Source: an uncultured Rhizobiaceae bacterium (GTDB taxonomy: Bacteria; Pseudomonadota; Alphaproteobacteria; UBA828). Taken from it: a stretch of 64,000 nt of DNA. Position numbers and translations under genes: made by a program. This document shows positions 8,142-53,510 of the stretch, in pieces (the first letter of the stretch is position 1; each line of letters starts with the position of its first letter). Under the pieces are notes generated by a model. That model searched no databases and was not told where the DNA came from. It saw only the letters and a list, made by a program, of their open reading frames with translations. Location of the stretch: contig CAYSDJ010000003.1 of assembly GCA_964429775.1 (NCBI GenBank), positions 75,129-139,128 on the forward strand, in the 5' to 3' direction.

Positions 8142-8528
8142 CTATTTGGCGGCGATGGCCTCTATCTCGACCAGCCACTGAGGCATCACCAGGGCGGGAA
8201 CGATGATCGCGGTCGAGGCGGGTCGGGTATCGCCGAGCACTTTCTTGCGCGCCGCGGCATAGGCCGAAAAATTTTCCGCGCCGACAACATAGCCGTTGAT
8301 TTTGACGATATCGTCGATGCCCATGCCGCCTTCTTCCAACAGCGCCAAAATGTTGGCCCAGGTTTGTGCCACCTGGTCTTCGAACGAGTCCGACGTGCTG
8401 CCGTCCGGCGCGGCGCCGACCTGGCCGGCGGTAAACAGCCAGCGTTTGTTGGGATCGACTTCGAGCGCCTGGCTGTAACCCTTGCCGAACGCTTCGACGA
8501 CGGTGTCCGGATTGTGACGTCTATGCAT
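8142..8528 (-). CDS. ridA: RidA/YjgF family reactive-intermediate deaminase
   Basis: A 128-aa protein with a YjgF-like fold signature (GQVG...PALVMP...VEIEAIA). Confidence 0.8.
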   Translation of the reverse strand: MHRRHNPDTVVEAFGKGYSQALEVDPNKRWLFTAGQVGAAPDGSTSDSFEDQVAQTWANILALLEEGGMGIDDIVKINGYVVGAENFSAYAAARKKVLGDTRPASTAIIVPALVMPQWLVEIEAIAAK

Positions 8529-13384: not shown

Positions 13385-14089
13385 CTAACCTCGCGGGTGA
13401 TTTTTTACCGCGCGTTCGAACTTCGCCAATAATTTCGGCTGGTGGCGCAGCGCCCGGCGGACAATTGGCGACGCGTGCAACCTTTCGGAAATGGCGACCA
13501 GGCGGCTGGTGCGTTGCACGACGGCGAATGCGAACTGTTCGCCCGCCGCCTTGCGGGTCTCGCTGTCGAGCTTGGCCCAGGAAACAAAGGCCAGCTCGGA
13601 CATGGCGTATACGGTGAAGCGGTTATAGCGCCCGGTGCGATAGGCCATGGCCAGCGCCCGGATCATTTGCGGCGAAACCCGGTTGAGGGCGAATTCGGAT
13701 TGCGCCAGGCGCAGCCACGGCTCGGGCAGGGCGGGGTTGAGCGCGATCGCGCGCCGGCTCGCTTCCTGGCTGTGGCGTAATCCCGCTTCGCGGTCCGCGC
13801 TGCCTGGGTCGGCGAGCAGGGCGCGGGCATAATGGAGGCGGGCCATGGCCGACCAGCGCGCCGCGCTATCGACCCAGCCATTGGCGGCATCGAAGGATTG
13901 CATCGCCGATTTTATCGTCGCGTCGGATATCGGCGCACCTTCGCGCAATTCATTGATGGTCAGGGTGCCGTGCAATTCCGCCAACCCGGCGGCGGTGCGC
14001 GGCAGGGCGAGGACGACCAGAATAATGCCGACGGTGAGAGCCGCAGTGAGGGAGAGAATATATCCGGGTGCGAAGCGTCGCGGCGCCAT
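13385..14089 (-). CDS. Hypothetical membrane-anchored protein (single N-terminal TM, helical/TPR-like periplasmic part)
   Basis: It is the last gene of the minus-strand export operon, after wzc. It has no catalytic motifs. Confidence 0.5.
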   Translation of the reverse strand: MAPRRFAPGYILSLTAALTVGIILVVLALPRTAAGLAELHGTLTINELREGAPISDATIKSAMQSFDAANGWVDSAARWSAMARLHYARALLADPGSADREAGLRHSQEASRRAIALNPALPEPWLRLAQSEFALNRVSPQMIRALAMAYRTGRYNRFTVYAMSELAFVSWAKLDSETRKAAGEQFAFAVVQRTSRLVAISERLHASPIVRRALRHQPKLLAKFERAVKNHPRG

Positions 14090-14094
14090 GATGA

Positions 14095-16434
14095 TCAGGT
14101 TTCAGAGTAATAGTTTTTATACTGCCCTGCATAATGACCGCCATCGCTGCCATAGTAACGCTCAAATTTCTTCACATCGACCTGCGAGAGCACCACCCCG
14201 GCAACATCGGCGCCAGATGCAACAATTTGTTTTAGGGCATTGGCGGCGGCACTGCGGCGGGTCTTGTTCCATTCGATGATGAAAACGGTCTTATCGACCT
14301 GGCGGCCGAGGACGAGGGTATCCGACACGGCGAGAACCGGTGGCGTGTCGAGCACGACGAGGTCATACGTATCGGCAAGCGCTTCAAGCAGCTCGCTCAT
14401 GAGATTGGACGCGAGCACATCGGTGGCGTTGGAAACGGTGGGCCCGGCGAGAATGTAGTGCGCCTCCGATTTGAAATCGATCTCGATTATGTCCTCAAGC
14501 TCTTTCTCGTGCGATAGATAATCGACAATGCCCTGGCTGTTCGGCACTTGTAGCGCTTTGTGCAGGGACGGTTTGCGCAGATCGCAATCGATAATCAACA
14601 CTTTCTGGCCGGACTTTGCCGCCGCACGGGCGAGCGATAATGACGCCGTCGTCTTTCCTTCGCTTGGCACCGAAGAGGTGATAGAAATTGTCCGGGGCGG
14701 CCGATCGACATCGGAAAGCAGCAATGCCGTCCGGAGCGTGCGCATGGCCTCTGAATAGGATGAGGTCGGCTTGTCGATGACCAAATCATAAGGCGCCTTG
14801 CCTTCCTTGTTGGCGCCGGTAACGCGCGGCAGCATGGCGATGGCCGGAATGCCGGTCGCGTCCTCGACCTGGTCGATGGTGCGGAAACCGGATTCCAATT
14901 GCTCGCGGACAAAAGCCAGCAGGAAGCCGATCAGGCCCGAGAGAATGAGCCCGGCACCGATAATCAATCCCTTGCGCGGCCGCGACGGGCCATTTGGTGC
15001 GGTGGCATAGGAAATGACACGCGCATCCGGTTCGATAATCTGTTGCTGCTGGGTATCTACCTGTTTGAAGCGTGCCAAAACGGTTTCATATAGCTCCCGG
15101 TCAGCGAGCGCGACGCTCGACAGTTCGCCCAGTTTCACTTCCGCCTGGTTCTGTTCGCCGACCCGTTCCTGCAATTTCTCAACCTCGGCAATCAGTTTGT
15201 CCTGGCGAATTTCGGTGATCTCCAGCTCGTTGCCGAGATTGATCGCGACCTTGTTGACTTCCTGGTTGATCTTCTTCTGCAGGTCTTCCAATTCGCTCCG
15301 CGCCAGCATCATTTTGGGATGGGCGTCGCGATACTGCGTTTCAAGTTCGGCAATGTTTCGGGTCAGCTCCGATTCCTGTTCGCGCAGGCGCTGGATAAGC
15401 GGCGATTCCAACACGGCGGCGGCCGAATCAAGACCGCCCGGCGTTTCCAATAGGCGCTGCACTTGATTGTAGCGCGCCTCGGCTTCGGCCAGAACGGTGC
15501 GCGATGCGATCAGTTGGGAATTTAGTTCGGCCAATTGCTGGGCGTAGAGTGTGGTATCGCCGATATTCACCAATCCGGCGCGGCGGCGGAAGGATTCGAG
15601 ATTGCGGCTCGAGGCCTCGACCCTGAGGCGCAGCTCGCCGACCCGGTCCGCCAGCCAGCGGTTGGCCCGTTCGGTGGCCTCATATTTGGCGTTGAGCTGC
15701 TCCAGGATATAGATATCGGCCACCGTATTGGTCGCCAACGCCGCCATCTCGGGATCGGGCGAAATATAAGAAATATCGATCACCAGCGATGTGCCGCCGG
15801 CCTCAACCGACAGTCCGGACAAGAACATATCAACCAGATATTGCCTGAGCGCCTCTTCCTTTTGCGCCTTGGTCAACACCACCGGCGCTTCAACCTCTTC
15901 CTCAGTCATGCCGAGGGAGGCGCGCCAGCTCTCGGGGAATATTTCCTTGAAGCTGGCAATGCCGAGCGCCTTTTTCAGCGAGCCCATCAGGCCGATCTTG
16001 GGCTCGCTCAGCTGCGGGTTATAAAGCGGATTGTTCACCAGGTCCAATTGCTCGACGACCTTTAAGGCGAGCGTGCGCGAGCGGATAATCTCGGCCTCGG
16101 TTTCATTGGTATAGAAATCGACGTTGAGGCCCTGAACCACGGATTCCGCCGACCGTCCGCCGGCATTGATCTGTTGGCGTTGCAGTACCAGGCTGGCTTC
16201 GGCGCTGTAGAGCGGTGTCATGCGCTGCACCATGAATATCGAGAGCAGCGTACCGATTATGATGACGCCGATAATCAGCATCTTGTTGCGTAAGAGGATG
16301 GCGAAGAATTGGCTGAGGTCGAATTCGCGCTTGGCCTGTGCCGGCGCTGGTGCGCCCACATCCTCGACCGGGACGAAGGTTAACTCCTCCGGTTCCTGGC
16401 GCGGCATGCGCGCCACTTTGCCTGGACTAGCCAT
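14095..16434 (-). CDS. wzc: Polysaccharide co-polymerase / tyrosine autokinase (Wzc/ExoP/GumC family)
   Basis: An N-terminal Wzz domain with two TMs is followed by a long coiled-coil. The C-terminal P-loop is SEGKTTASLSLA, with Walker B VLIIDCDLRKP. Confidence 0.9.
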   Translation of the reverse strand: MASPGKVARMPRQEPEELTFVPVEDVGAPAPAQAKREFDLSQFFAILLRNKMLIIGVIIIGTLLSIFMVQRMTPLYSAEASLVLQRQQINAGGRSAESVVQGLNVDFYTNETEAEIIRSRTLALKVVEQLDLVNNPLYNPQLSEPKIGLMGSLKKALGIASFKEIFPESWRASLGMTEEEVEAPVVLTKAQKEEALRQYLVDMFLSGLSVEAGGTSLVIDISYISPDPEMAALATNTVADIYILEQLNAKYEATERANRWLADRVGELRLRVEASSRNLESFRRRAGLVNIGDTTLYAQQLAELNSQLIASRTVLAEAEARYNQVQRLLETPGGLDSAAAVLESPLIQRLREQESELTRNIAELETQYRDAHPKMMLARSELEDLQKKINQEVNKVAINLGNELEITEIRQDKLIAEVEKLQERVGEQNQAEVKLGELSSVALADRELYETVLARFKQVDTQQQQIIEPDARVISYATAPNGPSRPRKGLIIGAGLILSGLIGFLLAFVREQLESGFRTIDQVEDATGIPAIAMLPRVTGANKEGKAPYDLVIDKPTSSYSEAMRTLRTALLLSDVDRPPRTISITSSVPSEGKTTASLSLARAAAKSGQKVLIIDCDLRKPSLHKALQVPNSQGIVDYLSHEKELEDIIEIDFKSEAHYILAGPTVSNATDVLASNLMSELLEALADTYDLVVLDTPPVLAVSDTLVLGRQVDKTVFIIEWNKTRRSAAANALKQIVASGADVAGVVLSQVDVKKFERYYGSDGGHYAGQYKNYYSET

Positions 16435-21930: not shown

Positions 21931-22554
21931 ATGAGCACTTTTCCTGAGCGACCTTACACCTCAATCGGCAGCTATTGTGATGATTATGTCGCGCAATTGG
22001 CGCGCGCCAGCGGCTCGATTGATCATGACCGGTTGGCGGCGGCCGGCGATATTTTGAATCAGGCGTTTGAGCGTGGCGCATGGCTCTATGTTTGCGGCAA
22101 TGGCGGCTCGGCGGCGATCGCCAATCACCTGCTGTGCGATTTCGCCAAGGGCATCCAGACCGATACCGAGCTCTTGCCGCGTGTCATTTCGCTCAGCGCC
22201 AATCTCGAACTGATCACCGCCATCGCCAATGATATCACCTTCGAGGATTGCTTCGTCTATCAGCTTCGCACAGCGGCGCGTCCCGGCGATGTGCTGCTGA
22301 CGATCAGCAGCTCGGGCGATTCCGAAAATGTCGTACGCGCCGTTGAATGGGCCAGCGCGAACGAGGTCCAGTCGATCGCGTTAACCGGATTTGACGGCGG
22401 GCGCTCGGCCCGTCTGGCCGCCGTCAACATCCATGTGAGCGGCGATAATTATGGCGTGGTCGAAGATACCCACCAGTCGATCATGCATATTTTTTCACAA
22501 TATTTGCGCCAAGCGAGAATGTCGGACTCGCTGATCACGTCGCGTAAATTCTAA
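21931..22554 (+). CDS. gmhA: SIS-domain phosphoheptose isomerase (GmhA)
   Basis: Motifs VCGNGGSAAIANHL and ISSSGDSENV. Confidence 0.8.
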   Translation: MSTFPERPYTSIGSYCDDYVAQLARASGSIDHDRLAAAGDILNQAFERGAWLYVCGNGGSAAIANHLLCDFAKGIQTDTELLPRVISLSANLELITAIANDITFEDCFVYQLRTAARPGDVLLTISSSGDSENVVRAVEWASANEVQSIALTGFDGGRSARLAAVNIHVSGDNYGVVEDTHQSIMHIFSQYLRQARMSDSLITSRKF

Positions 22555-22583
22555 CCGAGCACGAATTACCCCTGGAGACGATC

Positions 22584-23606
22584 ATGGCGAGCGACGCCAC
22601 ATCGGCACGCGTTGGAGTTATCGGTCTTGGCTATTGGGGCCCCAATCTGGTGCGCAATTTCGCCGCTGCCGAGGGCGCCCGGCTAACCGCTCTCTGCGAC
22701 CTGGATGAGGCCGCTCTCAACCGCCAGCTGGAGCGCTATCCCGAGGCCCGCGGAACGCGAAATCTCGACGAAATTATTGCCGCCCCCGATGTTGATATCG
22801 TTGTTGTCAGCACCAGGCCGAGCGAGAATTTCCGCCTTTGCAAGGCATCGCTCGAGGCCGGGCAACATGTCTTTGCCTGCAAGCCATTGAGCCAGAATCC
22901 CGAGGAGGCACGCACCCTTGCGGCGTTGGCAGAGGCGCGTGGTTTGGTTCTGCATACCGATCTCACTTTTCTCTACACTGCGGCGGTGCGCAAACTGCGC
23001 GATATCTTGGAGAGTTCGGTTTGCGGCGAACTGAACTATATTGAATCCGTCCGCACGCAGGCGCCGTGGCGTGCCGACATCAATGTGGTCTGGGATCTGG
23101 TGCCGCACGATATCGCCATATTGGGCCATGTGTTGCAGCAGATGCCGGTCGAAGTCAGCGCGCAATTTGCGGCGCGCCGTCTGGCCGCCGTCGAACATGC
23201 GGCGTTTGTCGTTTTGAATTATGCCGACGGACTTCAAGCGCGCCTCAATCTGAACTGGTTGAGCCCCGAGAAAGTCCGGCGCATGGTTTTTTGCGGTGAT
23301 AAAGCGGCGCTGGTATATGACGAGATGGAAGACGAAAAGAAATTGCGCATCTATAGCGGCGGTTTCGATATTGCCGGGGAAGACGGCGCGGAAAAATTGA
23401 CCACGCAATATCGTGCCGATGGCGTGGAAACGCCGGCGCTCAGCGGCACGGAAGCGCTTGCCCTGGAATGCCAGGAATTTATAAATGCGGTGGCCACCGG
23501 CGGTGCGACATTGAGCAGCGGTGAGGCGGGCTACCGCAACGCGCTCGTTTGTGCCGCGATTGACCGCAGTTTGAAAGCAGGCGGCGCCGCCATCGAAGTG
23601 GCGTAG
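22584..23606 (+). CDS. Gfo/Idh/MocA family NAD-dependent sugar oxidoreductase (WbpB-like 3-dehydrogenase candidate)
   Basis: N-terminal Rossmann motif VGVIGLGYWGPN. It is paired with a DegT aminotransferase. Confidence 0.85.
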   Translation: MASDATSARVGVIGLGYWGPNLVRNFAAAEGARLTALCDLDEAALNRQLERYPEARGTRNLDEIIAAPDVDIVVVSTRPSENFRLCKASLEAGQHVFACKPLSQNPEEARTLAALAEARGLVLHTDLTFLYTAAVRKLRDILESSVCGELNYIESVRTQAPWRADINVVWDLVPHDIAILGHVLQQMPVEVSAQFAARRLAAVEHAAFVVLNYADGLQARLNLNWLSPEKVRRMVFCGDKAALVYDEMEDEKKLRIYSGGFDIAGEDGAEKLTTQYRADGVETPALSGTEALALECQEFINAVATGGATLSSGEAGYRNALVCAAIDRSLKAGGAAIEVA

Positions 23607-23671
23607 ACGCGATGCATAAATGATGGGAAAACTAAGGTGCGAGAGAAAATGAATTTGGGAGCGTATCTATC

Positions 23672-24778
23672 GTGAGCGTGCCTTTTGTCGATTTAGCGGC
23701 GGCCTTCGCCGATATTGAAGCCGAGGTGGAGCCGGTCTTGCACGATTTGATGGCGCGCGGCGCCTTCATTCTGGGACGTGAACTGATCGAGTTCGAGAGC
23801 GCCTTTGCTGGATTTTGCGAGGCACAGAGTTGCGCCGGCGTCGAGAACGGCACGACGGCGCTCTCCCTTTCGCTAGAAGTATTGGGTGTTGGCGCTGGCG
23901 ATGAAGTGGTGGTGCCGGCCAACACCTTTGCCGCCACGGCTGCCGCCGTCTGCCACACCGGCGCCCAGGTGGTGTTTGCCGATGTCGATCCGGTCACCTT
24001 GACGCTCGATCCCATGTCGCTCGAAGCGGCAATCGGTCCCGCGACCAAGGCGGTGATTCCGGTTCATCTCTACGGCCAGCCGGCCGACATGCGGCCGATC
24101 AACGAGATTGCCCGCGCGGCGCGCCTCAAGGTTATTGAGGATGCAGCGCAGGCTCATGGCGCGCGCTATTTCGGCCGCCGTGTCGGTGCGCTCGCCGATA
24201 TTTCCGGGTTCAGTTTTTATCCCTCCAAGAATCTCGGCGCGTTCGGCGATGGCGGCGCCGTGACCGGCAACAACAAGGATTTGATCGAGCAGGTGCGCCT
24301 CTTGCGCCACCACGGCCAGTCGGCAAAAAATATACATTCCGTGGTCGGTGAGACGGCGCGTCTCGATAATCTTCAAGCCGCCGTATTGGCCATCAAGTTG
24401 AAGGATCTCGACCGCCGCAATGCGGCGCGCCGGCGCGTCGCGGCGGCCTACCAGGAGCAGCTCGCGGATCAGAGCAGTTGGCTCGAACTGCCGGCGATTG
24501 GTGAGGGACGCGAACATGTCTGGCATCTTTATGTCGTTCATTTGGATAATCGCGATGCGCTGGCGGCGGCGCTGAAGGAGGCGCAAATCGGTTACGGCAT
24601 GCATTATCCCATTGCGCTGCATCACCAGGCTGCCTTCGAGCAGGCACGCATCGGCGCGCCGCTTGCGGTTTGCGAACGCTCGGCGGCGCGGCTTTTTTCG
24701 CTGCCGATGTATCCCGAAATGAGCGACGATCAGATCGATTCCGTGGTGCGCGCGGTGCGCGCCTTTGGCGGCGGCTGA
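23672..24778 (+). CDS. DegT/DnrJ/EryC1/StrS PLP-dependent sugar aminotransferase
   Basis: The PLP-lysine region is [15 protein letters not shown]. The start is GTG. Confidence 0.9.
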
Positions 24779-24792
24779 GGGTGAGGTAAGAG

Positions 24793-25783
24793 ATGGCGAA
24801 TTTGCTCGAGGGTTTCGCGGTATTGGTCACCGGTGGCGCCGGATTTTTAGGCTCCCATCTGTGCGACCGTTTGATCGGCGATGAGCACGAGGTTCTTTGC
24901 CTCGATAATTTCGTCACCGGCAGTAAAAACAATATCGCGCATCTTCTGGATAGTCGCCGCTTCGAGCTGGTGCGTCACGATGTGTCCTTTCCCTATTACG
25001 CCGAAGTCGGCGGCATCTACAATCTCGCCTGTCCGGCTTCGCCGCGGCACTATCAGCGCGATCCGATGTTTACCATCAAGACCTCGGTGATGGGTGCGAT
25101 CAACATGCTGGGCCTGGCCAAGCGGCGTGGCGCGCCAATTTTTCAGGCCTCGACGTCGGAAGTCTACGGCGATCCGACCATCCATCCCCAACCCGAAAGC
25201 TACACCGGCAACGTCAATCCGATCGGTATCCGAGCGTGTTATGACGAAGGCAAACGCTGCGCCGAAACATTGTTCTTCGATTATCACCGCCAGAACGGAG
25301 TCAATATCCGTGTCGCGCGCATCTTCAATACCTATGGGCCGCGCATGGCGGTGGGCGACGGGCGGGTGGTCAGTAATTTTATCGTTCAGGCGTTGCGCGG
25401 CGAGGATTTAACCGTTTACGGCGATGGCTCCCATTCGCGCTCTTTTTGTTATGTCGATGATCTGGTGGACGGCATTCTCAGGCACATGGCCCATCGATGA
25501 TCTGGTGGACGGCATTCTCAGGCACATGGCCCATCCAAGCGAAACCGGGCCGGTAAATCTCGGCAATGAAAACGAATTTACCATGCTGGAATTGGCCGAG
25601 ACGGTGGTTCGTCTGATTGGCGGTTCTTCGCGCATTGTTTTCGAAAAAATACCCGAGGATGATCCGAGCCAACGCCAGCCCGATATTTCCAAGGCGCGCG
25701 AGACGCTCGGCTGGGAGCCGCAGGTGAATCTCGAAGACGGTCTCAAAGAGACGATAGATTATTTTCGTATGCAGCTCGCCTGA
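24793..25783 (+). pseudogene. uxs: UDP-glucuronate decarboxylase (UDP-xylose synthase, uxs), frameshifted by a 40-bp tandem duplication
   Basis: ORF 24793..25500 carries the N-terminal three quarters ([12 protein letters not shown]...YDEGKR) and ends ...MAHR*. ORF 25424..25783 carries the C-terminus in another frame. Both contain [13 protein letters not shown]. Deleting one repeat copy restores a UXS of about 316 aa. Confidence 0.8.
25455..25534. repeat. Perfect 40-bp head-to-tail tandem duplication (CGATGATCTGGTGGACGGCATTCTCAGGCACATGGCCCAT x2)
   Basis: Copies lie at 25455-25494 and 25495-25534 and are identical. 40 is not a multiple of 3. Confidence 0.95.
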
Positions 25784-25786
25784 GGT

Positions 25787-27010
25787 GTGAAAACCGGCGT
25801 CGTGGCCGCTCCCAAAAAAATTCTGATGATTAGTCATCACCGGCTCTTTAAGTCCTGGTTGCGGCCCGGCATTCTTGCCCGTGGACTTGTCCAGAATGGC
25901 CATCAGGTGACGATGATGGTGGTGGCGGAGAATGCCCGCTTTCATTTTAAGCGCAGCCTTATCGACGGCGTCGATGTGATCGAGGCGCCGGATCTGACGT
26001 CGGGGCGGTTGCGCTCGGGCTGGGACCCGGTCTCGATTTGGCGCCGCATCCGTTGCGTGCGCCGCCTCGATACGGACTATGATCTGATCCATCTGTTTGA
26101 AACCCGGCCGGCGACAATCTATCCCGGCCTCGCCGCGCGCCGCCGCATGAAGGTGCCGATGCTGATCGACTGGATCGATTGGTGGGGCCGGGGCGGGCTG
26201 ATCGAGATCAACCGTCCGGCATGGTATCGGTTGCTGTTTGGCGGCATGGAAACATATTACGAGGAACATTTCCGCACCCTGGCGGACGCCAACACCGTCA
26301 TGTGCCATGGCCTTGTGGAACGCGCCGTCGGTCTCGGTGTGCCGCGCGAGACGATTTTGCACCTTCGCAATGGCGCCGATCACGAACGGTTTTGCCCGCG
26401 CCCGATGGCCGATGTGCGCAGCCAGCTTGGCCTCGCACCGGATACCTTCATCGCCGGCTTCGCCAGCCTCGATTCGTTTTACGATCTTGAGCAGATTTTG
26501 CGCGGCATGAAACAATTGCTCGCCGGCGGCACGCCGGCGCGGCTTCTTTTGATCGGCAAATCCGATGCAGGGGTGCGAAGTCGGGTCGCGGCGATGGGTC
26601 TTGCCGAACATACCGATTATTCGGGCTTTGCTCCGGATGATATCTATCCGCTTTATCTCAACGCCTGCGACGTCCTGCTCATGCCGTTTCCCGAGACCAA
26701 TTACAATATCGGACGCTGGCCCAACAAATTCGGCGAATATCTCGCCAGTGGCCGGCCGGTTATTTTTAATTCGGTGGGCGATTTGCAGGATTTCGATCTG
26801 CCCGGGTCCGAAGCGGTGGGCATTGCCTGCGAATTTTCCGCCGAAGCATTTGCGGCCGCGATGCGGCAATTGTATGAATCTCCGGAATTGGCTGACCGGC
26901 TTGGCGATAACGCACGCCAGGCGGCCCTGCGCGAGTTGAATTGGCCGCACCAAATCGGACGGCTCGAAGCTCTCTATACCAGCCTTACGCATGAGAACGG
27001 GGCGGCTTAG
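25787..27010 (+). CDS. Glycosyltransferase family 4
   Basis: The C-terminal GT4 region has the E..E-type motif (...FPETNYNIGRWPNKFGEYLASGRPVI). The start is GTG with a GAGG ribosome-binding site. Confidence 0.85.
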   Translation: MKTGVVAAPKKILMISHHRLFKSWLRPGILARGLVQNGHQVTMMVVAENARFHFKRSLIDGVDVIEAPDLTSGRLRSGWDPVSIWRRIRCVRRLDTDYDLIHLFETRPATIYPGLAARRRMKVPMLIDWIDWWGRGGLIEINRPAWYRLLFGGMETYYEEHFRTLADANTVMCHGLVERAVGLGVPRETILHLRNGADHERFCPRPMADVRSQLGLAPDTFIAGFASLDSFYDLEQILRGMKQLLAGGTPARLLLIGKSDAGVRSRVAAMGLAEHTDYSGFAPDDIYPLYLNACDVLLMPFPETNYNIGRWPNKFGEYLASGRPVIFNSVGDLQDFDLPGSEAVGIACEFSAEAFAAAMRQLYESPELADRLGDNARQAALRELNWPHQIGRLEALYTSLTHENGAA

Positions 27011-27013: not shown

Positions 27014-28630
27014 ATGACGGCAAACAGCGCATCTGTGCAGAGCGGTCGGCAGGGCACGTTTTTCTATCGCTTGGCCCTGGTGACCGTCGATTTGGCGTCG
27101 ATCGGCCTTCCCGCCTGGCTTTTCATTGACAGTGTCTCCTTCGCCTATGGCCTGGTGATTGCCCTGATGCAGACTTTCGTCTTTCGTGAAAATTCGCTCT
27201 ATTGGCGCCATTCCGCTCTCTATAAGGCGTTTTGGCCGCAATTTACCGCGGTGCTGCGCTCCTATATTCCGATCTTCATTATCTTTTGCGTCATATCCTT
27301 TATTTCCCAAGCTTTCGGCTCACGCCCCCAGCCGGGTGACCTGTTACTGTTGTTCGCTGTCGTGGTTGGCTTGACCATCGCCATGCGTTTCGTCCTCACT
27401 GCCTTGATCAAACTGACCTCGTTCGGGCTCGCGCCGGGCTGGCTGGTTATCGGCGCCTCGCCGCGGGCGCGCTTGATTGCCGAGGAGATCAAGAGCGAGA
27501 CCGGCAAGATGCGTTTTCTCGGTTTTGTCGTTGAGCGCCGTGATGCCGAGGCCGGGGATATTCCGGGCGACGAAATCGCCGCATCGATTGATGGGCTGGA
27601 AGACGCGATCACCATCACCGGTGCCTCGAATGCGGTGGTTGTGGCTGACGACAAACCGATTGGCGAGGTTCTCGAAATTGTTGACCGTGTTGGCGCCTGC
27701 CCGGTGGTCGGTTTCATCTATAACGAGGCGTTCGATATTGTCCGCCAGCGGTACAAGAGCCTGCCGATTGGCGACTACACAGTAACCTCTATCGAAACCG
27801 GCGCGCGTTCGGACGTCGATGCCATGCTGTCGCGCAGCATGGATTTTGTCGGCGCCGGCTTTTTTCTCGCTCTCTTCTCGCCGCTCTTTTTGGTGATTGC
27901 GCTGGCCATCAAACTAAGCAGTCCGGGGCCGGTGTTTTTTCTCAGCGACCGCGTGCGCGACCGCGCCGGCCACACCTTCCGGTTCTATAAATTCCGCTCC
28001 ATGCGGGTGCGCAGCGCCGATCCGGCAGCGGAGCGCGATGAAGATATGGACAAGCTCTTTGCCGGCACCGTGGCGGACAAGGAAAATACCAAGATCAAGC
28101 CCAAGGGCGCGGTCACCGGCGTTGGCGGCTTCCTGCGCAAATACAGCCTCGACGAATTGCCGCAACTGATCAATGTGCTGAAAGGCGATATGAGCCTGGT
28201 CGGGCCGCGTCCGTGCCTAAAATATGAATATGAGCGCTACCAGGAATGGCACAAGCGCCGCCTCGACGCCAAGCCCGGTATGACAGGTCTATGGCAAGTG
28301 GTGGCGCGCAGCAAAACCAATTTCGACGAACAGGCCATTCTTGATATCTATTACAACGACCACCGCACCGTGTGGTTTGATATCGAGATTCTGCTGAAGA
28401 CAATACCGGTTGTCTTAATATGGCCGCGGCGGCGGCTGAGTGACGAGCGGGGCCGGCGTGACATCCTCGCGGCGTTCAGGGCGCAATTCGATTTACGGCC
28501 TTTTGGGGTTCGCGATTCCGGCGTTGGTGCAGATCGCCGCATACCCCATTCTCATCCATCATCTCGGCCCCGAGATTGTCGGCATTTATTTGCTCGCGAC
28601 CGTCTTGAGCGGTGCCTGGATGTTTTTTGA
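27014..28630 (+). CDS. Polyprenyl-phosphate sugar-1-phosphate transferase (WbaP/ExoY family, Bac_transf)
   Basis: N-terminal TMs precede a catalytic domain: ...[27 protein letters not shown]...[21 protein letters not shown]. The roughly 60-aa low-complexity tail after ...IPVVL overlaps wzx by 190 nt, so the 3' end is uncertain. Confidence 0.85.
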
Positions 28631-32565: not shown

Positions 32566-33738
32566 ATGACGATGAGCGATGCCGCGCCGGATAGCCGGCG
32601 ATGCGAAACCAGCAACGACCCGGCAAGCCTGATCGATTGCCTGTTTGCCGCGCAACTGGGCGAGGAAAAATCCAAGCCCGGGCCGGCAGTCGATTTCGGT
32701 GCTTTCGCGTCTTCCGAACGGTTGCGCTGGTTATTTCCCTGTGATGCACGGGTGCGCGAGTTCTTGTGTGCCTGGCAGCCTGCGGGCAGGTTGCGCGCCC
32801 TGATATGGCGCACCGCCGTGCGCGCCTCGACAGCCGGTTTGGCCGGATTGATGCCGGGCATAACGCGCCATGCGGTTGATGGCGCTGCCGTCGCCCGTCT
32901 TGCGCATCGCTTCGGTCACGAGACGGCGGAATGTCTGCCGGCGATTTATATCGGCACCATCGGCTATCGGCGAAAGGCGGTTGTCGGCTGGATGGATCGG
33001 CGTGGCGCCTGCGTTGCGGTCGGGAAGTTTCCGCTCGGGCGGCGCGCGGCTGAGGCATTGGCCAACGAGGCCAAGGCACTGACCGGTCCGGCCGCGAAAC
33101 TGGGCATTGCCATGCCCGCCTTGCGCCATTGGGATGAGGCGGCCGGGCTGTTATTGCAAAGCAGTGTCGCGGGGCGCAATTGTCCGGCGCCGTTCGATGC
33201 GCGCCATGCTTCCCTGCTGGTGAAACTGGTGAGCCCGGAAGCGCGCTTGGCAGCGGCGGTATATGCCGAGCTACTGGAGAGCAACGATGCGCGAATTGCC
33301 GCATCGGCGAAAATCTTATTGGCCGGGTATGAGAATGAAAATGTCTGTCCGGCGCAAATGCACGGTGATTTCACCCAGGCCAATCTGAAGCAAATTGGCG
33401 GGCGGGAATTGGCCGTGGTGGATTGGGAATATTATTCGCCCGTGGGCGCACCTTTGGCGGACGCAATCTATTTTCAATTATTTAGGAGCTATTTTATCAA
33501 TCACCTCAGCGGCCCGGCGCTGCTGCGCGAGCTGTTGCGTTTTATTGACAGCGGGCATATTGCGCGCTTGTGTGAAGTGGCGGGCATTGGATTGGCGGCG
33601 CGCCGCCGTTTCGCCTGCCTTGGGCTTTTGGCTGTCGCGCAGTCCCGTGTCCGAGACGGCGAGGATGAAAACGATGCGGCGCGCGTCACCATTCTCGATG
33701 TCGTGGATCGAATGGCAAAGGAACTTTCAGCCGGATGA
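32566..33738 (+). CDS. Aminoglycoside-phosphotransferase-like (protein-kinase-fold) phosphotransferase
   Basis: Catalytic loop HGDFTQANL and Mg-binding VVDWEY match APH/choline-kinase motifs. A candidate nucleotide-binding Lys lies in AVGKFP. Confidence 0.6.
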   Translation: MTMSDAAPDSRRCETSNDPASLIDCLFAAQLGEEKSKPGPAVDFGAFASSERLRWLFPCDARVREFLCAWQPAGRLRALIWRTAVRASTAGLAGLMPGITRHAVDGAAVARLAHRFGHETAECLPAIYIGTIGYRRKAVVGWMDRRGACVAVGKFPLGRRAAEALANEAKALTGPAAKLGIAMPALRHWDEAAGLLLQSSVAGRNCPAPFDARHASLLVKLVSPEARLAAAVYAELLESNDARIAASAKILLAGYENENVCPAQMHGDFTQANLKQIGGRELAVVDWEYYSPVGAPLADAIYFQLFRSYFINHLSGPALLRELLRFIDSGHIARLCEVAGIGLAARRRFACLGLLAVAQSRVRDGEDENDAARVTILDVVDRMAKELSAG

Positions 33739-35162
33739 AACATCGGAAATCAGAGATAGGCCCACGCCGTTTTGGCTTGTTTCGCGGTGGCGTGTTTTCG
33801 GTAATATTCCATGCGGGAATTATCCTGGTGATTGCCGTGGTGGTTGTCTATTTGCTCAACATGTCGCCCGCGGAGGACACCGGCGCGCCCGAAACGGCGC
33901 ACGATTCGGCGGGCCAGCAGGAAGCCGCCACAGAGCCTGCCGCGCCCGTTGTTCAAACTGCGAACCAGACTGTCGTTCAGAACAATGAAACCGATGCGCC
34001 CAAAACGTTGCAGGAGGTTTCCGAACGAATCGATGAATTGTTTCTCGAAATTATCAGCGGCTTCGATCCTGCCGATCCAGAATCGCGGGAATATCTGAAG
34101 CGTTTGATCCGCGATGCCACAGCCGGTTATGTCGATGAACAATTTCTCGTTGGCGAATTTTACCTGGCTGGAACAGGGGTGAAAAAGAGCGAGAAGCGGG
34201 CCGCCGAACTGCAGTTGAAATCGGCTGAGAAAAAACTTGTCGATGCGCAAATCCGCATGGGCTCACTTTACGCGCTCGGCCGCGGCGTGCCGGTTAATGT
34301 CGCGCGCGCACATATGTGGTGGAGCCTCGCCGCCGAAACCGGCGATACATTGGCGGCGCAGGCGGCGCATCTCATGCGCCCCATGATGACTCACACGGAT
34401 TTCTCAAATTCGGCGCGCGATGCCCTTGAGTTGAAGCAATATTGGGATTCCTGGCAGCGCTTCGCCATCATCAATAATCCGCAATTGAGCAATCAGCTTC
34501 TCGCTGCGGCGCGTGCCGGCAACGCGGTGCGGATTCGCCGCCTGCTTGATCAGGGCGCGGATCCCAATATCGAGGACCGCAAGGGGCGCGCGGCGTTGCT
34601 GCTGAGCGCCAAGGGTGGCCACGGCGATTCGGCGCAGGCGCTTCTGGCGCGTGGCGCCGATGCCAATGCGACCGACGAGAACGGCAAGAGCGTGCTCATG
34701 TATGCAGCCGAAAATGGCGACGGTAAATTGGTGAAAGCGCTGTTGCAGCGAAAGGTCGATGTCAACGCCGCCAATAAATTCGGTGAAACGGCGTTGATCA
34801 ATGCCGCCTGGCGCGGCAGAAAATCGGTCGCCAACACACTTATTGAGCGTGGTGCGGAAGTTGATCTGCCCGACAAGCAGGGCGGGACAGCGCTAATCTG
34901 GGCTGCCATTAACGGCCATACGGACGTGCTCGAACTGTTGGTCGACCGCCGTGCGAAAATCGATTGGATCGATAATTCCGGTTTGACGGCGCTCTCCCGG
35001 GCGGCGTGGAACGGCGAAATCGATGCGGTCGATACCTTGCTTGACCTTGGTGCCGATCCGTTGGTGCGCGACAAAGAGGGCATGACGGCCGCCATTCGGG
35101 CCGAATCGGAAGGCCACGAAGATATCGTATCAAGACTGTCGCGCTCAGCGCGCGGCGGATAG
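33735..35162 (+). CDS. Membrane-anchored Sel1-repeat plus ankyrin-repeat protein
   Basis: An N-terminal TM (VIFHAGIILVIAVVVVYLL) is followed by two Sel1-like repeats (...YLAGTGVKKSEKRA..., ...YALGRGVPVNVARA...) and at least five ANK repeats (G.TALI.AA..GH..V...L). The ATG overlaps the upstream stop as ATGA. Confidence 0.8.
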   Translation: MKHRKSEIGPRRFGLFRGGVFSVIFHAGIILVIAVVVVYLLNMSPAEDTGAPETAHDSAGQQEAATEPAAPVVQTANQTVVQNNETDAPKTLQEVSERIDELFLEIISGFDPADPESREYLKRLIRDATAGYVDEQFLVGEFYLAGTGVKKSEKRAAELQLKSAEKKLVDAQIRMGSLYALGRGVPVNVARAHMWWSLAAETGDTLAAQAAHLMRPMMTHTDFSNSARDALELKQYWDSWQRFAIINNPQLSNQLLAAARAGNAVRIRRLLDQGADPNIEDRKGRAALLLSAKGGHGDSAQALLARGADANATDENGKSVLMYAAENGDGKLVKALLQRKVDVNAANKFGETALINAAWRGRKSVANTLIERGAEVDLPDKQGGTALIWAAINGHTDVLELLVDRRAKIDWIDNSGLTALSRAAWNGEIDAVDTLLDLGADPLVRDKEGMTAAIRAESEGHEDIVSRLSRSARGG

Positions 35163-41138: not shown

Positions 41139-42161
41139 CTACGCCGCCGGGCCGCTAACGCCGGCGCTCTCGAAGGTCGCCATGCCGTTATGCGTTAGCG
41201 CCGCCGCGCGCACCAGCCCGGCCGCCAGCGCCGCGCCCGATGCCTCGCCGAGACGGAGAGAAAAATCGAGCAAGGGCTGTTGGCCTATTTTTTCCAACAG
41301 GCGTGCATGGCCGGGTTCGACCGAATTGTGCGAGACAAGGCAATGATCGAGGCCATCCGGGCGCACGGCGTGGAGAAGCGCTGCTGCCGTGCTGCAGGCA
41401 AAGCCGTCGAGCAGCACCGGGACGCGACCCTGGCGGGCGGCCAGCGTGGCGCCGGCAATGGCGGCGAACTCGCGCCCACCGAGCCGGCGCAGCGCTTGCA
41501 AAGGATCGCCGAGATGATCTTTGTGCCGCGCCAGGGCAGCGTCGATGGTGCCGGCTTTGCGCGCCAGGCCTTCATCGTCGATGCCGGTTCCGCGCCCGGC
41601 CCAATCGGCGCCCGTGCCGCCAAAGAGTGCCGCCGATAGGGCCGAGGCAATGGTCGTGTTGCCGATACCCATCTCGCCGAGACAGACCAGATCGGCCTCG
41701 TCATCGAGCGCCGCCATGCCGTCCTGCCACGCCGCGAGACAAGCAGCCTCGTCAAGTGCGGCTTCCTCGGTGATATCGCCGCTTGGCTCCTCAAGGGCCA
41801 AGGGAATTACCGTAAGGGACGCATCGAGCCAACCGCTCAACTGGTTGATGGCGGCGCCGCCGGCGGCAAAATTAGCCACCATCTGCGCCGTCACCGCGCT
41901 CGGATAGGCCGAGACACCGCGTGCCGCGACGCCATGATTGGCGGCGAAAACGATAATCTGGATGTTTTCGGCACGCGGCGGATGGCGCCCCTGCCAGGCG
42001 GCCAGCCACTCGGCGATCCGTTCGAGGCGGCCCAATGAGCCGGCCGGTTTTGTGAGCACGGCCTGGCGCGCGCGTGCCGCCTGAAGCGCGTTTTCATCGC
42101 CGGCGGGCACTGCCGCTATCAGCTTGTGCAGGTCTTGCAGGGATTGGGGAGCGTCACTCAT
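41139..42161 (-). CDS. cobT: Nicotinate-nucleotide--dimethylbenzimidazole phosphoribosyltransferase
   Basis: Motifs VFAANHGV and GEMGIGNTT in a protein of about 340 aa. Confidence 0.9.
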   Translation of the reverse strand: MSDAPQSLQDLHKLIAAVPAGDENALQAARARQAVLTKPAGSLGRLERIAEWLAAWQGRHPPRAENIQIIVFAANHGVAARGVSAYPSAVTAQMVANFAAGGAAINQLSGWLDASLTVIPLALEEPSGDITEEAALDEAACLAAWQDGMAALDDEADLVCLGEMGIGNTTIASALSAALFGGTGADWAGRGTGIDDEGLARKAGTIDAALARHKDHLGDPLQALRRLGGREFAAIAGATLAARQGRVPVLLDGFACSTAAALLHAVRPDGLDHCLVSHNSVEPGHARLLEKIGQQPLLDFSLRLGEASGAALAAGLVRAAALTHNGMATFESAGVSGPAA

Positions 42162-42271
42162 TTAGCCGAACCTTTACACGTTACCCGCGCGAGCGTGCTT
42201 GGCGCTTCGCCCGGGCTGTCCTATAACCGGTGGGGAGGATTCCCATACAACTAAATCTGAGGCAAGGGCGA

Positions 42272-43144
42272 ATGCCTTTCGAATCGGAGCCCGAGGGAAA
42301 ATTTGAGCGCAAGGCGTATTTTACCGCCCGCGCCTGGTGGCAGGATCTGGTAAATGCATTGCGCTTTTTGACGCGTATTCCCCTGCCGCACGCACACGCT
42401 TCGGCCCGCCCTGGTTTTCCTGATGAGGCTGAAGATGCGGCGGACACCGCAGAAGAAGTCGGAGACGCGCCGGCGCTGAAGCCGCTCGGGCGCACGGTGC
42501 GCGCCTTTCCTCTGGTTGGTGCGCTGCTCGGTATCATCGCCGGGCTGGCTTTTGCCATCGCCACCGGCCTCGGTCTGCCGGATCTGGTTGCCGGCGTAAT
42601 TGCCGTTGCCTTGCTCGCGCTGGCGACCGGCGCGCTGCATGAGGACGGTCTGGCCGATATGGCGGATGGTTTTGGCGGCGGGCATAATGTTGAGAAGAAA
42701 CTTGCCATCATGCGCGACAGCCGCATCGGCGCCTATGGTGTCATCGCGCTGGTACTGGTGCTGGCGGCGAAGGTTGGCGCGCTGGCCGATCTCTCCGATA
42801 TCGGTGTTGTGATGTCGGCTTTGATCTGTGCCGCCGCGACATCGCGCGCGGCCATGCCGGCAATGATGCGCTGGATGGATCCGGCGCGCAGCGACGGCCT
42901 CGGCGCCGGCGCCGGGCGGCCGGCGGGTGAGCATGTCTGGACCGGTATCATTATTGCCGCCATTCTTTGCGTCTTGCTGCTCACCTGGTCGGGTTTGGTG
43001 GCGTTGCTGATTGCCGCCCTCGGCGCCATGGCCGTCGGCGTTCTTGCGCGCCGCCAGATCGGCGGATATACCGGCGATGTGCTCGGTGCCACGCAACAAA
43101 TTTCCGAGCTCATTTTCCTTCTCACACTGGCGGCCATTAGATGA
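42272..43144 (+). CDS. cobS: Adenosylcobinamide-GDP ribazoletransferase (cobalamin synthase)
   Basis: The N-terminal FLTRIPLP motif is followed by multi-TM segments. An alternative start is GTG 42230. Confidence 0.85.
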   Translation: MPFESEPEGKFERKAYFTARAWWQDLVNALRFLTRIPLPHAHASARPGFPDEAEDAADTAEEVGDAPALKPLGRTVRAFPLVGALLGIIAGLAFAIATGLGLPDLVAGVIAVALLALATGALHEDGLADMADGFGGGHNVEKKLAIMRDSRIGAYGVIALVLVLAAKVGALADLSDIGVVMSALICAAATSRAAMPAMMRWMDPARSDGLGAGAGRPAGEHVWTGIIIAAILCVLLLTWSGLVALLIAALGAMAVGVLARRQIGGYTGDVLGATQQISELIFLLTLAAIR

Positions 43145-43815
43145 ATGCTTTAAACGACAGCACCGTGACGAGCTGGTGGTGGATTCGCCACGCGCCCGTG
43201 ACCAGCCATCACGGCCGCCTCTACGGCAATACCGATGTGTCGGCAAATACCGATGACGTCGAGGCTTATGAGGGCCTGGCGGCGCAATTGCCCGAGGGCG
43301 CGCTTTGGGTTGCCAGCCATTTGCAGCGCACCCACCAAACAGCGAACGCCATCGCCAAAGCCGGCCACCCGGTAGCCGAGCCCCTGGTGGAGGAGGATTT
43401 GGCCGAGCAGTGTTTTGGCGATTGGCAGGGCCTTACCTATGCCGAGGTTGCCGCTGACCGGGCGGGCAAGGATCACCCTTTCTGGATCGCGCCGGCGCAG
43501 TTCGCCGCGCCGGGTGGCGAAAGTTTCGCCGACGTCATGGCGCGTGTGTCGAATACGGTCGCGCGTCTCAGTGCCGATCATGCCGGGCGCGATATCGTCG
43601 CCGTCGCCCATGGCGGCTCGATCCGCGCCGCGCTCGGCCATGCTCTCGGCATCGCCCCGGATCAGGCGCTTTCCTTCACCGTCGACAATCTCTCGATCAC
43701 CCGCATCGACTGTTTTCATGGCACCGGCGGGCGCGTGGACTGGTGCGTCATCGGCGTCAATTTGCCGCCTAGCAAAAGCGCGCCACATGGAGTAGTTTTC
43801 CCGCCAAGACGCTGA
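43141..43815 (+). CDS. cobC: Alpha-ribazole phosphatase (histidine phosphatase family)
   Basis: WIRHAPV...HGRLYG is the RHG motif, with a second His in AVAHGGSIRA. Confidence 0.8.
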   Translation: MNALNDSTVTSWWWIRHAPVTSHHGRLYGNTDVSANTDDVEAYEGLAAQLPEGALWVASHLQRTHQTANAIAKAGHPVAEPLVEEDLAEQCFGDWQGLTYAEVAADRAGKDHPFWIAPAQFAAPGGESFADVMARVSNTVARLSADHAGRDIVAVAHGGSIRAALGHALGIAPDQALSFTVDNLSITRIDCFHGTGGRVDWCVIGVNLPPSKSAPHGVVFPPRR

Positions 43816-44023
43816 GTCAGGGAAGCCGGTGAAACCCTTAAATTAATAGGGCCATTCCGGTGCTGCCCCCGCAACTGTAAGCGGCGAGGTAACCCTCTTT
43901 TGTACAGGGTAAGACCCCTTTGCAAGCCACTGGCGGCGCAAGCTGCCGGGAAGGTGAGGGCCAGCCTTTGACCCCAAGCCAGGAAACCTCCTTGGCGTCG
44001 CCCCGGAACGATCCTCGGAGGGA
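43816..44023 (+). promoter_or_regulatory. Cobalamin (AdoCbl) riboswitch
   Basis: GGGAAGCCGGTGAAA, the core AATAGGG...CCGGTGCTGCCCCCGCAACTGTAAGCGG, and the B12 box AGCCACTGG...GGGAAGG. CCTCC at 43987-43991 can pair with the GGAGG ribosome-binding site at 44017-44021. Confidence 0.85.
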
Positions 44024-44025
44024 GG

Positions 44026-44559
44026 ATGATGCCGCCATCAACGGATATGTCGCGCACGACCCTGATATTGGGCGGCGCGCGTTCAGGTAAAAGCCGCTAT
44101 GCGGAAGAGCTGCTCACGGCGGCGGATGGCGCTCGCGTCTACATTGCCACGGCGGAGGCGCGTGACGATGAAATGACAGCGCGTATCCTAGAACACCAGG
44201 CGCGGCGCGGCGATACGTGGCGCACGGTTGAGCAACAGCTCGACCTGGTCGCCGCATTACATGAAAATTGCCGTGCCGACGCAGCGGTCCTGGTTGATTG
44301 CCTTACCTTGTGGCTGGCCAATCTGATGGCGGCTTCGCGCGATATTGGCGCGGAAACCAGCCAACTGGTGCACGCTTTGCCCGGGTTTGAGGGCCGCCTG
44401 GTGCTGGTCTCGAATGAAGTCGGCCAGGGTATCGTGCCGGAAAATGCCCTGGCGCGGGAATATCGCGATCATGCCGGGCGGCTCAATCAGGCGGTTGCCG
44501 CCGCCGTTGACGAGGTGGTGTTGGTCACTGCCGGCCTGCCGCTCCGGATCAAGCCATGA
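44026..44559 (+). CDS. cobU: Adenosylcobinamide kinase / adenosylcobinamide-phosphate guanylyltransferase
   Basis: P-loop LILGGARSGKS. About 175 aa. Confidence 0.9.
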   Translation: MMPPSTDMSRTTLILGGARSGKSRYAEELLTAADGARVYIATAEARDDEMTARILEHQARRGDTWRTVEQQLDLVAALHENCRADAAVLVDCLTLWLANLMAASRDIGAETSQLVHALPGFEGRLVLVSNEVGQGIVPENALAREYRDHAGRLNQAVAAAVDEVVLVTAGLPLRIKP

Positions 44560-45500
44560 GCGCAGAGGATCTTCGCATCGTTAGCCTGCTGCCAAGTGCG
44601 ACGGAAATTGTCGCCGCACTTGGCCTCGCTGATCGGCTGGTCGGGCGTTCGCACGAATGCGACTTCCCGGCTGATGTCGCGGCGCTGCCTGTTTGCACCC
44701 GCCCGCGCCTGACGTTGGATGGCGGCAGCGCGGGGATTGACGCGAAAGTGTCTGATTTCGCCGGCCAGGCCCTCAGCATCTATGAGCTCGATATGGATGC
44801 GCTCAGCGCCGCCCGGCCGACCCATATCGTCACGCAAGATCAGTGCGAGGTCTGCGCTGTGGGCCTGAAAGATGTCGAGGCCGCGCTGGCCGGGGATTTG
44901 CAGGGGCCGGTTGAAATCGTCTCGCTCAGCCCGATGCGGCTCGGCGAAGTGTGGGCCAGCATTCGCCAGGCTGGGCGCGCACTCGATGCGGATGCGGACG
45001 ATCTCTGCCGCTCCCTGACCGGGCGCATTGCGCGCATTGCCGCCGGCGGCATGGACATGCCCGCCGGACCGCCGAGCGTCGCCACCATCGAGTGGAGCGA
45101 CCCCCTGATGGCGGCGGGAAATTGGCTGCCGGAGCTTGTCGCTATCGCCGGGGGAAATAATTTATTGGGCGATGCCGGTACCCATTCGCCAAAATTCGAA
45201 TTCGCCGATCTCCTCACCGCCGACCCCGATATCATTGTCTTCATGCCGTGCGGTTACGATCTGGCGAAAACGGCGGCGGAGGCCGAAAAGCTGATACGCG
45301 ACCCGGCCTGGGCGGCGCTAAGTGCCGTTCAGGGCGGACAAGTCTATGCGGTTGACGGCAACGCCTATTTCAACCGGCCGGGGCCGCGGCTGGTGGAATC
45401 GGCGGAAATACTGGCCGAGATTTGCCACCCGGATATGTACCAATTCGGCCACGAAGGAACAGGCTGGCGCCGCCTTGGCCCCGGCGCGGAGAACAAATAG
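44556..45500 (+). CDS. Cobalamin-binding (BtuF-like) protein without a signal peptide
   Basis: A class-III periplasmic-binding-protein fold is apparent (LRIVSLLPSATEIVAALG...IVFMPCGYD). It is the cob-cluster cytoplasmic variant. Confidence 0.65.
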   Translation: MSAEDLRIVSLLPSATEIVAALGLADRLVGRSHECDFPADVAALPVCTRPRLTLDGGSAGIDAKVSDFAGQALSIYELDMDALSAARPTHIVTQDQCEVCAVGLKDVEAALAGDLQGPVEIVSLSPMRLGEVWASIRQAGRALDADADDLCRSLTGRIARIAAGGMDMPAGPPSVATIEWSDPLMAAGNWLPELVAIAGGNNLLGDAGTHSPKFEFADLLTADPDIIVFMPCGYDLAKTAAEAEKLIRDPAWAALSAVQGGQVYAVDGNAYFNRPGPRLVESAEILAEICHPDMYQFGHEGTGWRRLGPGAENK

Positions 45501-45502
45501 AC

Positions 45503-46537
45503 ATGCAAAGCCGCAAGATTCCAACCACCGTCATTTCCGGCTTCCTCGGCGCCGGCAAAACCAGCCTCATACGCCATGTGCTGGCGACGGCGAATGGCCG
45601 CCGTGTCGCGCTGATCATCAATGAGTTTGGCGATCTTGGTGTCGATGAATCATTGCTGCGTGGCTGCGGCGACGCGGCCTGCGAAGACGGTGAGATTATC
45701 GAGCTCGCCAATGGCTGCATCTGCTGCACCGTGGCCGATGATTTTGTCCCCACCATAGAGGCACTGTTGGCGCGCGATCCGGCGCCCGAGCATATCGTTA
45801 TCGAGACCTCCGGCCTGGCCCTGCCGAAGCCGCTCGTCGCCGCCTTCAACTGGCCGGAAATACGCAACCGGGTGACGGTCGATGGCGTGGTCGCGGTGGT
45901 TGATGGCCCGGCCCTGCTGGATGGCCGCTTCGCCGCCGACCCGGCCGCCTTGCAGGCGCAACGCGAAGCCGATGACGCGCTCGATCACGAAAGCCCACTG
46001 GAAGAAGTATTTGAGGACCAGCTTTCCTGCGCCGATCTGGTGGTGCTCAACAAGGTCGATCAACTCGATAATGCGGCATGCGCAGAGACGCGCTCGCTAT
46101 TGGCTGGAGAATTACGCCCCGGGGTGAAGGTCGTCGAGGCCGAGCAGGCGCGCATCGATGCCGATATCCTGCTCGGGCTGGCTGCCGCGGCGGAAGATGA
46201 TCTGGCCGCGCGGCCCTCGCATCACGATGAATTCGACGGCGAGCATGACCATGACGAATTCGACAGTTTTATCCTTGAGTTAGGCCCCATCGCCGAGCCT
46301 GAGGCGCTCGAAGCGCGCCTGATCGCCGCCATTGAGGAGCACGATATTTTGCGCATCAAGGGCTTTGTCGATGTGCCGGGCAAGCGCCGCCGTCATGTCA
46401 TTCAGGCGGTCGGCACGCGCGTCGCGCGCCATTTTGATCGTGATTGGGGCACAGACGAAACGCGCCAAAGCCGCCTCGTCGTCATCGGCCTCAGCCCGCT
46501 TGACCGCGCCGCCATCAGCGCAGCGTTGGTGGCCTAA
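45503..46537 (+). CDS. cobW: CobW (COG0523 GTPase) cobalamin biosynthesis protein
   Basis: P-loop GFLGAGKTS, motif GCICCT, and a His-rich stretch HHDEFDGEHDHDEFD. Confidence 0.9.
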   Translation: MQSRKIPTTVISGFLGAGKTSLIRHVLATANGRRVALIINEFGDLGVDESLLRGCGDAACEDGEIIELANGCICCTVADDFVPTIEALLARDPAPEHIVIETSGLALPKPLVAAFNWPEIRNRVTVDGVVAVVDGPALLDGRFAADPAALQAQREADDALDHESPLEEVFEDQLSCADLVVLNKVDQLDNAACAETRSLLAGELRPGVKVVEAEQARIDADILLGLAAAAEDDLAARPSHHDEFDGEHDHDEFDSFILELGPIAEPEALEARLIAAIEEHDILRIKGFVDVPGKRRRHVIQAVGTRVARHFDRDWGTDETRQSRLVVIGLSPLDRAAISAALVA

Positions 46538-46541
46538 ATAG

Positions 46542-50923: not shown

Positions 50924-50933
50924 GGAATTGATC

Positions 50934-52415: not shown

Positions 52416-52422
52416 TTGCGCT

Positions 52423-53451: not shown

Positions 53452-53510
53452 GATTTGAGCATGGGTGCGTATAACCGAACCGTCAACGCAACAAAGAAAA
53501 GAGCAATATC

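Follow-up and report, generated by a model that had tools for sequence, protein, structure and literature searches.

A perfect 40-nt tandem duplication breaks the reading frame of a predicted UDP-xylose synthase gene (uxs) in the polysaccharide operon of an uncultured alphaproteobacterium. It lies in the 64-kb stretch of DNA analysed here, referred to as the window. Both this two-copy allele, which is dominant in most of the sampled populations, and the exact one-copy allele were found in metagenome assemblies. Taken as a whole, the observations are best read as a spontaneous, microhomology-mediated, and revertible knockout of uxs that segregates in a wild population, not as a locus built for switching, and this reading is considered probable.

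The 40-nt duplication and the identity of the interrupted gene

Direct reading and a script both gave zero mismatches between nt 25455–25494 and nt 25495–25534, and Tandem Repeats Finder, on nt 25454–25535, returned a period of 40, 2.0 copies, 100% matches, and a score of 164. The perfect head-to-tail duplication of 40 bp that the first-pass annotation had placed at 25455–25534 was thus exact to the base. Period-40 identity extended over 82 nt (25454–25535), one base past the repeat on each side, and the duplication junction had a microhomology of 2 nt (T..C). The uxs repeat was the sole exact tandem duplication of at least 18 nt in the 64-kb window, and chance is therefore excluded. The features of this region are as follows.

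23672–24778, + strand: DegT/DnrJ/EryC1 aminotransferase gene of the same operon, upstream of uxs
24793–25500, + strand: N-terminal uxs fragment ORF, 235 aa; Rossmann domain with GGAGFLG at 14–20, T121/S122/E123, and Y150/K154; ends ...MAHR-stop
25455–25494, + strand: copy 1 of the 40-nt unit, CGATGATCTGGTGGACGGCATTCTCAGGCACATGGCCCAT; encodes a 13-aa peptide, alpha-helix 221–233
25495–25534, + strand: copy 2 of the 40-nt unit, matching copy 1 at every base (100%); frame +1 as counted from the start of uxs
Junction of copy 1 and copy 2, short form: GGCCCAT/CGATGATC
Junction of copy 1 and copy 2, longer form: ...CACATGGCCCAT/CGATGATCTGG...
One-copy allele: a single unit flanked as TTATGT-unit-CCAAGC
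25498–25500, + strand: premature stop TGA, from out-of-frame reading of copy 2
25496–25783, + strand: genuine coding sequence of the UXS C-terminus, shifted here to the +1 frame within ORF 25424–25783; holds the essential Arg281 (equivalent to human UXS1 Arg277) and 27 family-invariant positions
25526–25783, + strand: possible restart ORF, 85 aa (MAHPSETG...); ATG 25 nt past the premature stop, weak AGG upstream, called by some gene callers
25787–27010, + strand: GT4 glycosyltransferase gene, starting 4 nt past the normal uxs stop

Through the frameshift, translation stops after residue 234 and 82 C-terminal residues are lost. ORF reading agreed with the first account that the uxs frame ends at TGA 25498–25500. 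Translation likewise placed the UXS C-terminus in another frame, ORF 25424–25783, which comprises the duplicated peptide and the remainder of the UXS protein in the +1 frame, and recovered the duplicated 13-aa peptide in both fragments. When one copy was deleted in silico, an intact UXS ORF of 316 aa was obtained, the length that had been anticipated, and its product aligned with human UXS1 from end to end.

The 316-aa reconstruction matched PF01370 (1.1e-46) and PF16363 (5.7e-46) over its full length, and its residues 10–315 aligned with human UXS1 (hUXS1) chains 4gll/2b69 with E = 3.6e-117. In hUXS1, Thr118/Tyr147/Lys151 constitute the SDR triad, while Ser119/Glu120/Arg277 are specific to UXS and separate decarboxylases from epimerases (PMC3438964). 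The reconstruction possessed the NAD-binding GxxGxxG motif as GGAGFLG at residues 14–20, the triad as T121, Y150, and K154 (hUXS1 T118, Y147, and K151, respectively), and the UXS-specific residues as S122, E123, and R281 (hUXS1 S119, E120, and R277, respectively). T121, S122, E123, Y150, K154, and R281 were invariant in an alignment of 23 homologues. Many homologues carry the source name UDP-glucuronate decarboxylase. None of the NCBIfam equivalog models reached its cut-off with the UXS protein, and no UXS above 73% identity turned up when the GTDB representative genomes were scanned with the protein as guide. The end-to-end alignment with human UXS1 and the presence of all six signature residues bear out the earlier naming of the gene, which is predicted to encode a UDP-glucuronate decarboxylase (UDP-xylose synthase). 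End-to-end homology, the GxxGxxG motif, the Thr/Tyr/Lys triad, and the Ser/Glu/Arg set are thus shared with the human enzyme (PDB 2B69/4GLL; PMC3438964). Unlike that enzyme, the window allele, known here from sequence, is broken after residue 234 and is without the loop carrying the Arg277 equivalent.

The one-copy allele and possible reversal of the duplication

The reconstructed 316-aa protein was found exactly (P0122) on a Logan contig, L011, from run SRR9166051. Alignment of L011 with window nt 22090–26704 showed 0 mismatches over 4,575 bp and one clean gap of 40 nt. The evidence for the one-copy allele consists of this single k=31 contig, and the one-copy and two-copy contigs come from different runs. 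L011 starts at 22090, as does contig L018, and ends at 26704, as does contig L105, which marks both ends as branch points of the graph common to the two runs and not as coverage drop-outs. The break points 22090 and 26704 are shared across Logan runs, although the contigs fetched did not differ from one another at these positions; they imply either further strain variants or sequence common to co-occurring relatives.

In Logan contigs no 31-mer may repeat, and the k-mers have each been seen at least twice (PMC12424806). For a k=31 graph that includes the junction, the computed boundaries were an upstream contig end at 25483 and a downstream contig start at 25506. These are the positions at which L018 (SRR8062318) ends and at which L105 (SRR8062318) and L106 (SRR8062341) start. 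A Logan contig cannot hold the two-copy allele, and the junction path was therefore absent or pruned in SRR9166051. The assembler Minia3 prunes connections only when they are about 4-fold below their neighbours; by this rule a pure two-copy population should break, as in the other two runs, and not collapse. It is likely that L011 reflects a sample dominated by the one-copy allele, and unlikely that it is a collapse artefact from a junction path lost at low coverage or pruned. Because the background of the one-copy allele is identical except for the 40-nt gap, the two alleles probably segregate in one near-clonal population. The one-copy allele may be either the ancestor, still present, or a form that has re-arisen by reversion.

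A repeat tract was found neither in the one-copy allele nor in the orthologues; the ancestral sequence had only a TC...TC microhomology 40 nt apart. DNA folding of the ancestral region was no better than that of shuffles (z = +1.45), and no nearby direct or inverted repeats able to seed a duplication were found. As the ancestral uxs had no repeat, the forward mutation was not facilitated. A rare replication slippage or microhomology event would have duplicated 40 bp in the uxs gene of this Wzx/Wzy-type operon. The duplication copies the codons of one alpha-helix, shifts the frame, and stops translation after residue 234; the 82 residues removed include the Arg by which the active site of UXS is closed, and the enzyme would be knocked out. 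Precise deletion between perfect adjacent repeats is intrinsically far more frequent than the forward duplication. The perfect 40-nt direct repeat thus renders the lesion intrinsically revertible, and the one-copy allele could be restored by precise loss of one repeat through replication slippage or recombination.

A reversible ON/OFF switch was one of three readings offered in the first-pass annotation. The exact one-copy allele on an identical background lends it partial support, but the locus showed none of the marks of a dedicated switch. Genuine phase variation, with xylose turned OFF by the duplication and ON by its precise loss and the mixture kept by fluctuating selection (phage, grazers), appears unlikely. 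Such variation would accord with the occurrence of both alleles on an identical background (0 SNPs in 4.6 kb), with a perfect 40-nt direct repeat that is a substrate for precise deletion, and with a surface-polysaccharide gene as the target, and has precedents in pneumococcal cap3A, cap8E, and tts. However, the forward step is without a hypermutable substrate, the microhomology being 2 nt, such that the ON to OFF change should be rare here. Moreover, the junction does not vary among the two-copy contigs, as would fit a single origin, and the surviving ancestor may be all that the one-copy allele represents. In a sister lineage, uxs was lost not by duplication but by a +1 insertion where a few A residues follow one another (A4 to A5 region).

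The pneumococcal precedents are the closest known system. As cited in PMC4243769, PMC4022640, and PMC11163986, Waite 2001 (PMID 11886554) and 2003 (PMID 12624211) described ON/OFF switching of the capsule through tandem duplications that arise spontaneously in the genes cap3A (type 3), cap8E (type 8), and tts (type 37), and the acapsular strains with these duplications revert by precise deletion. To the extent that these citing papers describe it, the system shares with uxs a perfect tandem duplication within the ORF of a polysaccharide gene, restoration of the ORF by precise loss of one copy, and no need for a pre-existing repeat tract, and cap3A likewise encodes a nucleotide-sugar enzyme. 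In uxs, a frame-destroying perfect duplication is situated in a polysaccharide ORF, and its exact one-copy restoration is an existing allele. According to the same citing papers, switching in pneumococcus was seen in cultured cells, its frequencies were measured, and the capsule phenotype was observed, whereas the uxs allele is known from assemblies alone and has a single junction. Simple sequence repeat (SSR) contingency loci, in which LOS and capsule genes of Neisseria, Haemophilus, and Campylobacter undergo slipped-strand phase variation (review PMC4235727), also resemble uxs in the reversible frameshifting of a surface-glycan gene by gain or loss of a repeat unit. In those loci, however, an evolved multi-copy homopolymer or short-unit tract is present in both states, whereas the uxs ancestor and its relatives are without a repeat. 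As no repeat tract was seen in the one-copy allele and the orthologues, uxs was not assigned to this class.

Truncated product and operon context

The 82 residues cut off hold R281 and 26 other positions that were invariant in the 23-homologue alignment, and in hUXS1 the change R277Q leaves only traces of UDP-xylose (PMC3438964). Because R281 and the 26 other invariant positions are removed, the 235-aa product should be inactive, as judged from the biochemistry of the family, and activity would be lost in vivo. The knockout would be weakened if the genome had another uxs outside this locus or if the split enzyme were functional; neither a second uxs nor a UDP-glucose dehydrogenase gene (ugd) was found among the window ORFs scanned.

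A split but functional UXS would require re-initiation at ATG 25526 (or a start at ATG 25424, 25451, or 25457) and reassembly of the 235-aa piece with a piece of roughly 85 aa, and this is very unlikely. In the AF2 model of an intact orthologue with 95% identity (pTM 0.82), the duplicated peptide (residues 222–234) falls on helix 221–233, which is followed by a loop and then by strand 241–243; the predicted break would thus lie exactly at a helix/loop boundary, which speaks for a split enzyme. There is also an in-frame ATG 25 nt past the stop, and the C-terminal ORF is intact and undecayed, with an ORF being called there by gene callers. An intact C-terminal ORF is, however, equally expected from a recent lesion, and a convincing Shine-Dalgarno sequence such as the GGTGAGG of uxs is missing before the ATG, where AGG stands at -7 to -5. 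In addition, the C-terminal piece comprises a strand of the central sheet and the loop with the active-site Arg, which makes non-covalent assembly demanding. To our knowledge, no natural split UXS exists.

On the + strand, uxs is preceded in the operon by gmd, fcl, gmhB-like, and gmhA-like genes, a GFO/IDH/MocA oxidoreductase gene, and the DegT aminotransferase gene, and is followed by genes for the GT4 glycosyltransferase, a Bac_transf phosphoglycosyl transferase (PGT), and a Wzx-type flippase. Genes for Wzy_C proteins, Wzz/tyrosine kinase, Poly_export, and a BBP2_2 porin flank the operon. The normal uxs stop abuts the GT4 start, whereas the premature stop is 285 nt away from it. In the duplicated allele, translational coupling of the GT4 gene would be lost, and through polarity the glycosyltransferase, phosphoglycosyl transferase, and flippase genes that follow uxs may be expressed less.

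Several other differences and features were observed in the same region. Compared with contigs L012 and L023, the PGT gene (27014–28630) has a +1 A insertion at 28412–28423 (GTCTTA-TATGG to GTCTTAATATGG), by which the last 6 residues are replaced and the ORF is extended from 474 to 538 aa, crossing the flippase start. In L012, a segment of 867 nt (13612–14478) with a gene for a 250-aa SAM-methyltransferase lies between the PGT and flippase genes; it is missing from the window (about 28440–28444), a further remodelling of the uxs operon. At the edge of the polysaccharide locus, nt 33735–35162 encode a protein of 475 aa that combines Sel1 repeats with multiple ankyrin repeats and is conserved in the related lineage of L012; being eukaryote-like, these repeats may point to life in association with a host. 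The polysaccharide region is followed directly by a large aerobic-type cobalamin cluster (41139–59571), containing genes for a CobT-like DBI_PRT protein, CobW, CobN, a CobQ/CobB-like amidotransferase, CbiG, and several TP_methylases. CobN from the window shares 94% identity with a protein named 'MAG: Rhodospirillaceae bacterium', and the bacterium is taken to be Rhodospirillaceae-like. Near the start of the window, at 2821–2887, 2.7 copies of a 25-nt unit (TTCAGTGACGGGTCGTCGCACTTTA) follow one another with 97% identity, each unit having a small GTGACG/CGTCAC hairpin. This array is located between a convergent PhaR-like gene (2120–2794) and a PAS-GGDEF-EAL gene (2872–4656, minus strand) and resembles a stack of terminator hairpins.

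Distribution and age of the two-copy allele

The exact 235-aa truncated product was encoded by 15 contigs. The perfect double unit was present in all of the 10 JGI/ENA loci fetched, which belong to nine assemblies (JGI 3300008735, 3300007508, and 3300007509, together with six from ENA that belong to the series SUTE22-1 and SCRA20-1) and were 99.84–100% identical to the window. Exact-match scans with the 40-nt unit gave no match in metagenome_contigs and genome_contigs, two collections from which this lineage is absent. That the true genome is one-copy and the duplication was introduced by assembly or scaffolding, as had been considered in the first reading, is rejected. Assemblers can be confused by tandem repeats, and the sole one-copy contig came from a different assembler, but single-copy reads cannot create the junction k-mer. 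The junction, moreover, is present in JGI and ENA assemblies of nine samples, and the junction-dependent breaks in the two k=31 Logan assemblies, with each k-mer seen at least 2 times, support it as well. Least credible of all is programmed +1 ribosomal frameshifting in the duplicated segment, giving a full-length UXS with a 13-aa helix insertion: the +1 frame is open over 25412–25780 (stops at 25409 and 25781) and a slip before 25498 would yield 329–330 aa, but by inspection there was no slippery or prfB-like (CUU UGA) motif before the stop (codons ...GCC CAT CGA TGA) and no SD-like stimulatory element upstream, and the one-copy ancestor needs no such device.

Comparison with close relatives, as the first-pass annotation had advised, revealed intact single-copy orthologues of about 89–91% nucleotide identity in a syntenic operon, i.e., P0125 (on L012–L014) and P0001 (on L015); the duplication is therefore derived. 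Over 12.7 kb, the contigs are identical apart from a 9-nt indel (21974–21982), a SNP at 28200, and two singletons, and the sampled population is nearly clonal. The 9-nt indel (ATTGTGATG) is in frame within the gmhA-like SIS gene and polymorphic, being absent in L003 and L009. Not being a clean tandem duplication, it was ruled out as the same mutational signature. Together with the SNP at 28200 it constitutes a second micro-haplotype, and the duplication is found on both micro-haplotypes; the two-copy allele has therefore persisted through at least a little diversification. This persistence would fit selection for the OFF state or a low reversion rate alike.

Relative to L012, dN/dS was 0.34 in the cut-off C-terminal codons and 0.04 in the N-terminal part. 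Decay after inactivation was rejected as the explanation, because changes polarised with L022 were about equal on both branches and the window residues were those of the family consensus. The absence of lineage-specific decay from the C-terminal codons points to a recent origin. The suggestion of a recent inactivating lesion, made at the outset, is well supported and is the favoured one.

In the sister lineage, uxs is interrupted in another way. Relatives of 275 aa (P0008 and P0009, 93% identical) leave the frame after ...TMLELAE, and a +1 A (GAGA to GAAAA) is present at about codon 256 (L022 nt 8282–8299), ahead of the codon equivalent to Arg281. Three assemblies show it, L022 (JGI 3300045738), L023 (Logan SRR28417441), and L024 (ENA ERZ791561). 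The clade has thus seen two independent disruptions of uxs, which suggests that it tolerates, or is favoured by, the loss of UDP-xylose synthesis. In this respect the window allele resembles ordinary frameshift pseudogenes of O-antigen and capsule loci, represented here by the sister +1 A in L022–L024, in which loss of a sugar-precursor gene remodels or abolishes the polysaccharide and recurs across related lineages. Unlike point-indel pseudogenes, its perfect 40-nt duplication would revert far more readily, and the wild-type allele is still detectable. The mutation is of an ordinary type, set slightly above a routine pseudogene by the presence of two alleles and by the frameshift that arose in parallel in the sister lineage.

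In practice, uxs is annotated by pipelines as two 'hypothetical' pieces, and lesions of this type either cause a break in k=31 assemblies or are hidden there. It is doubtful, although worth considering, that a free-living uncultured alphaproteobacterium uses or benefits from a Waite-type duplication that toggles the xylose of its polysaccharide, with both states maintained across wild samples. If so, duplication-based phase variation would extend from cultured pathogens to natural communities, and toggling of this kind would be detectable in metagenomes through its k-mer break signature. If the two alleles co-occur and interconvert, uxs would represent a natural case of reversible surface-glycan remodelling outside the host-pathogen setting, readable from public metagenomes.
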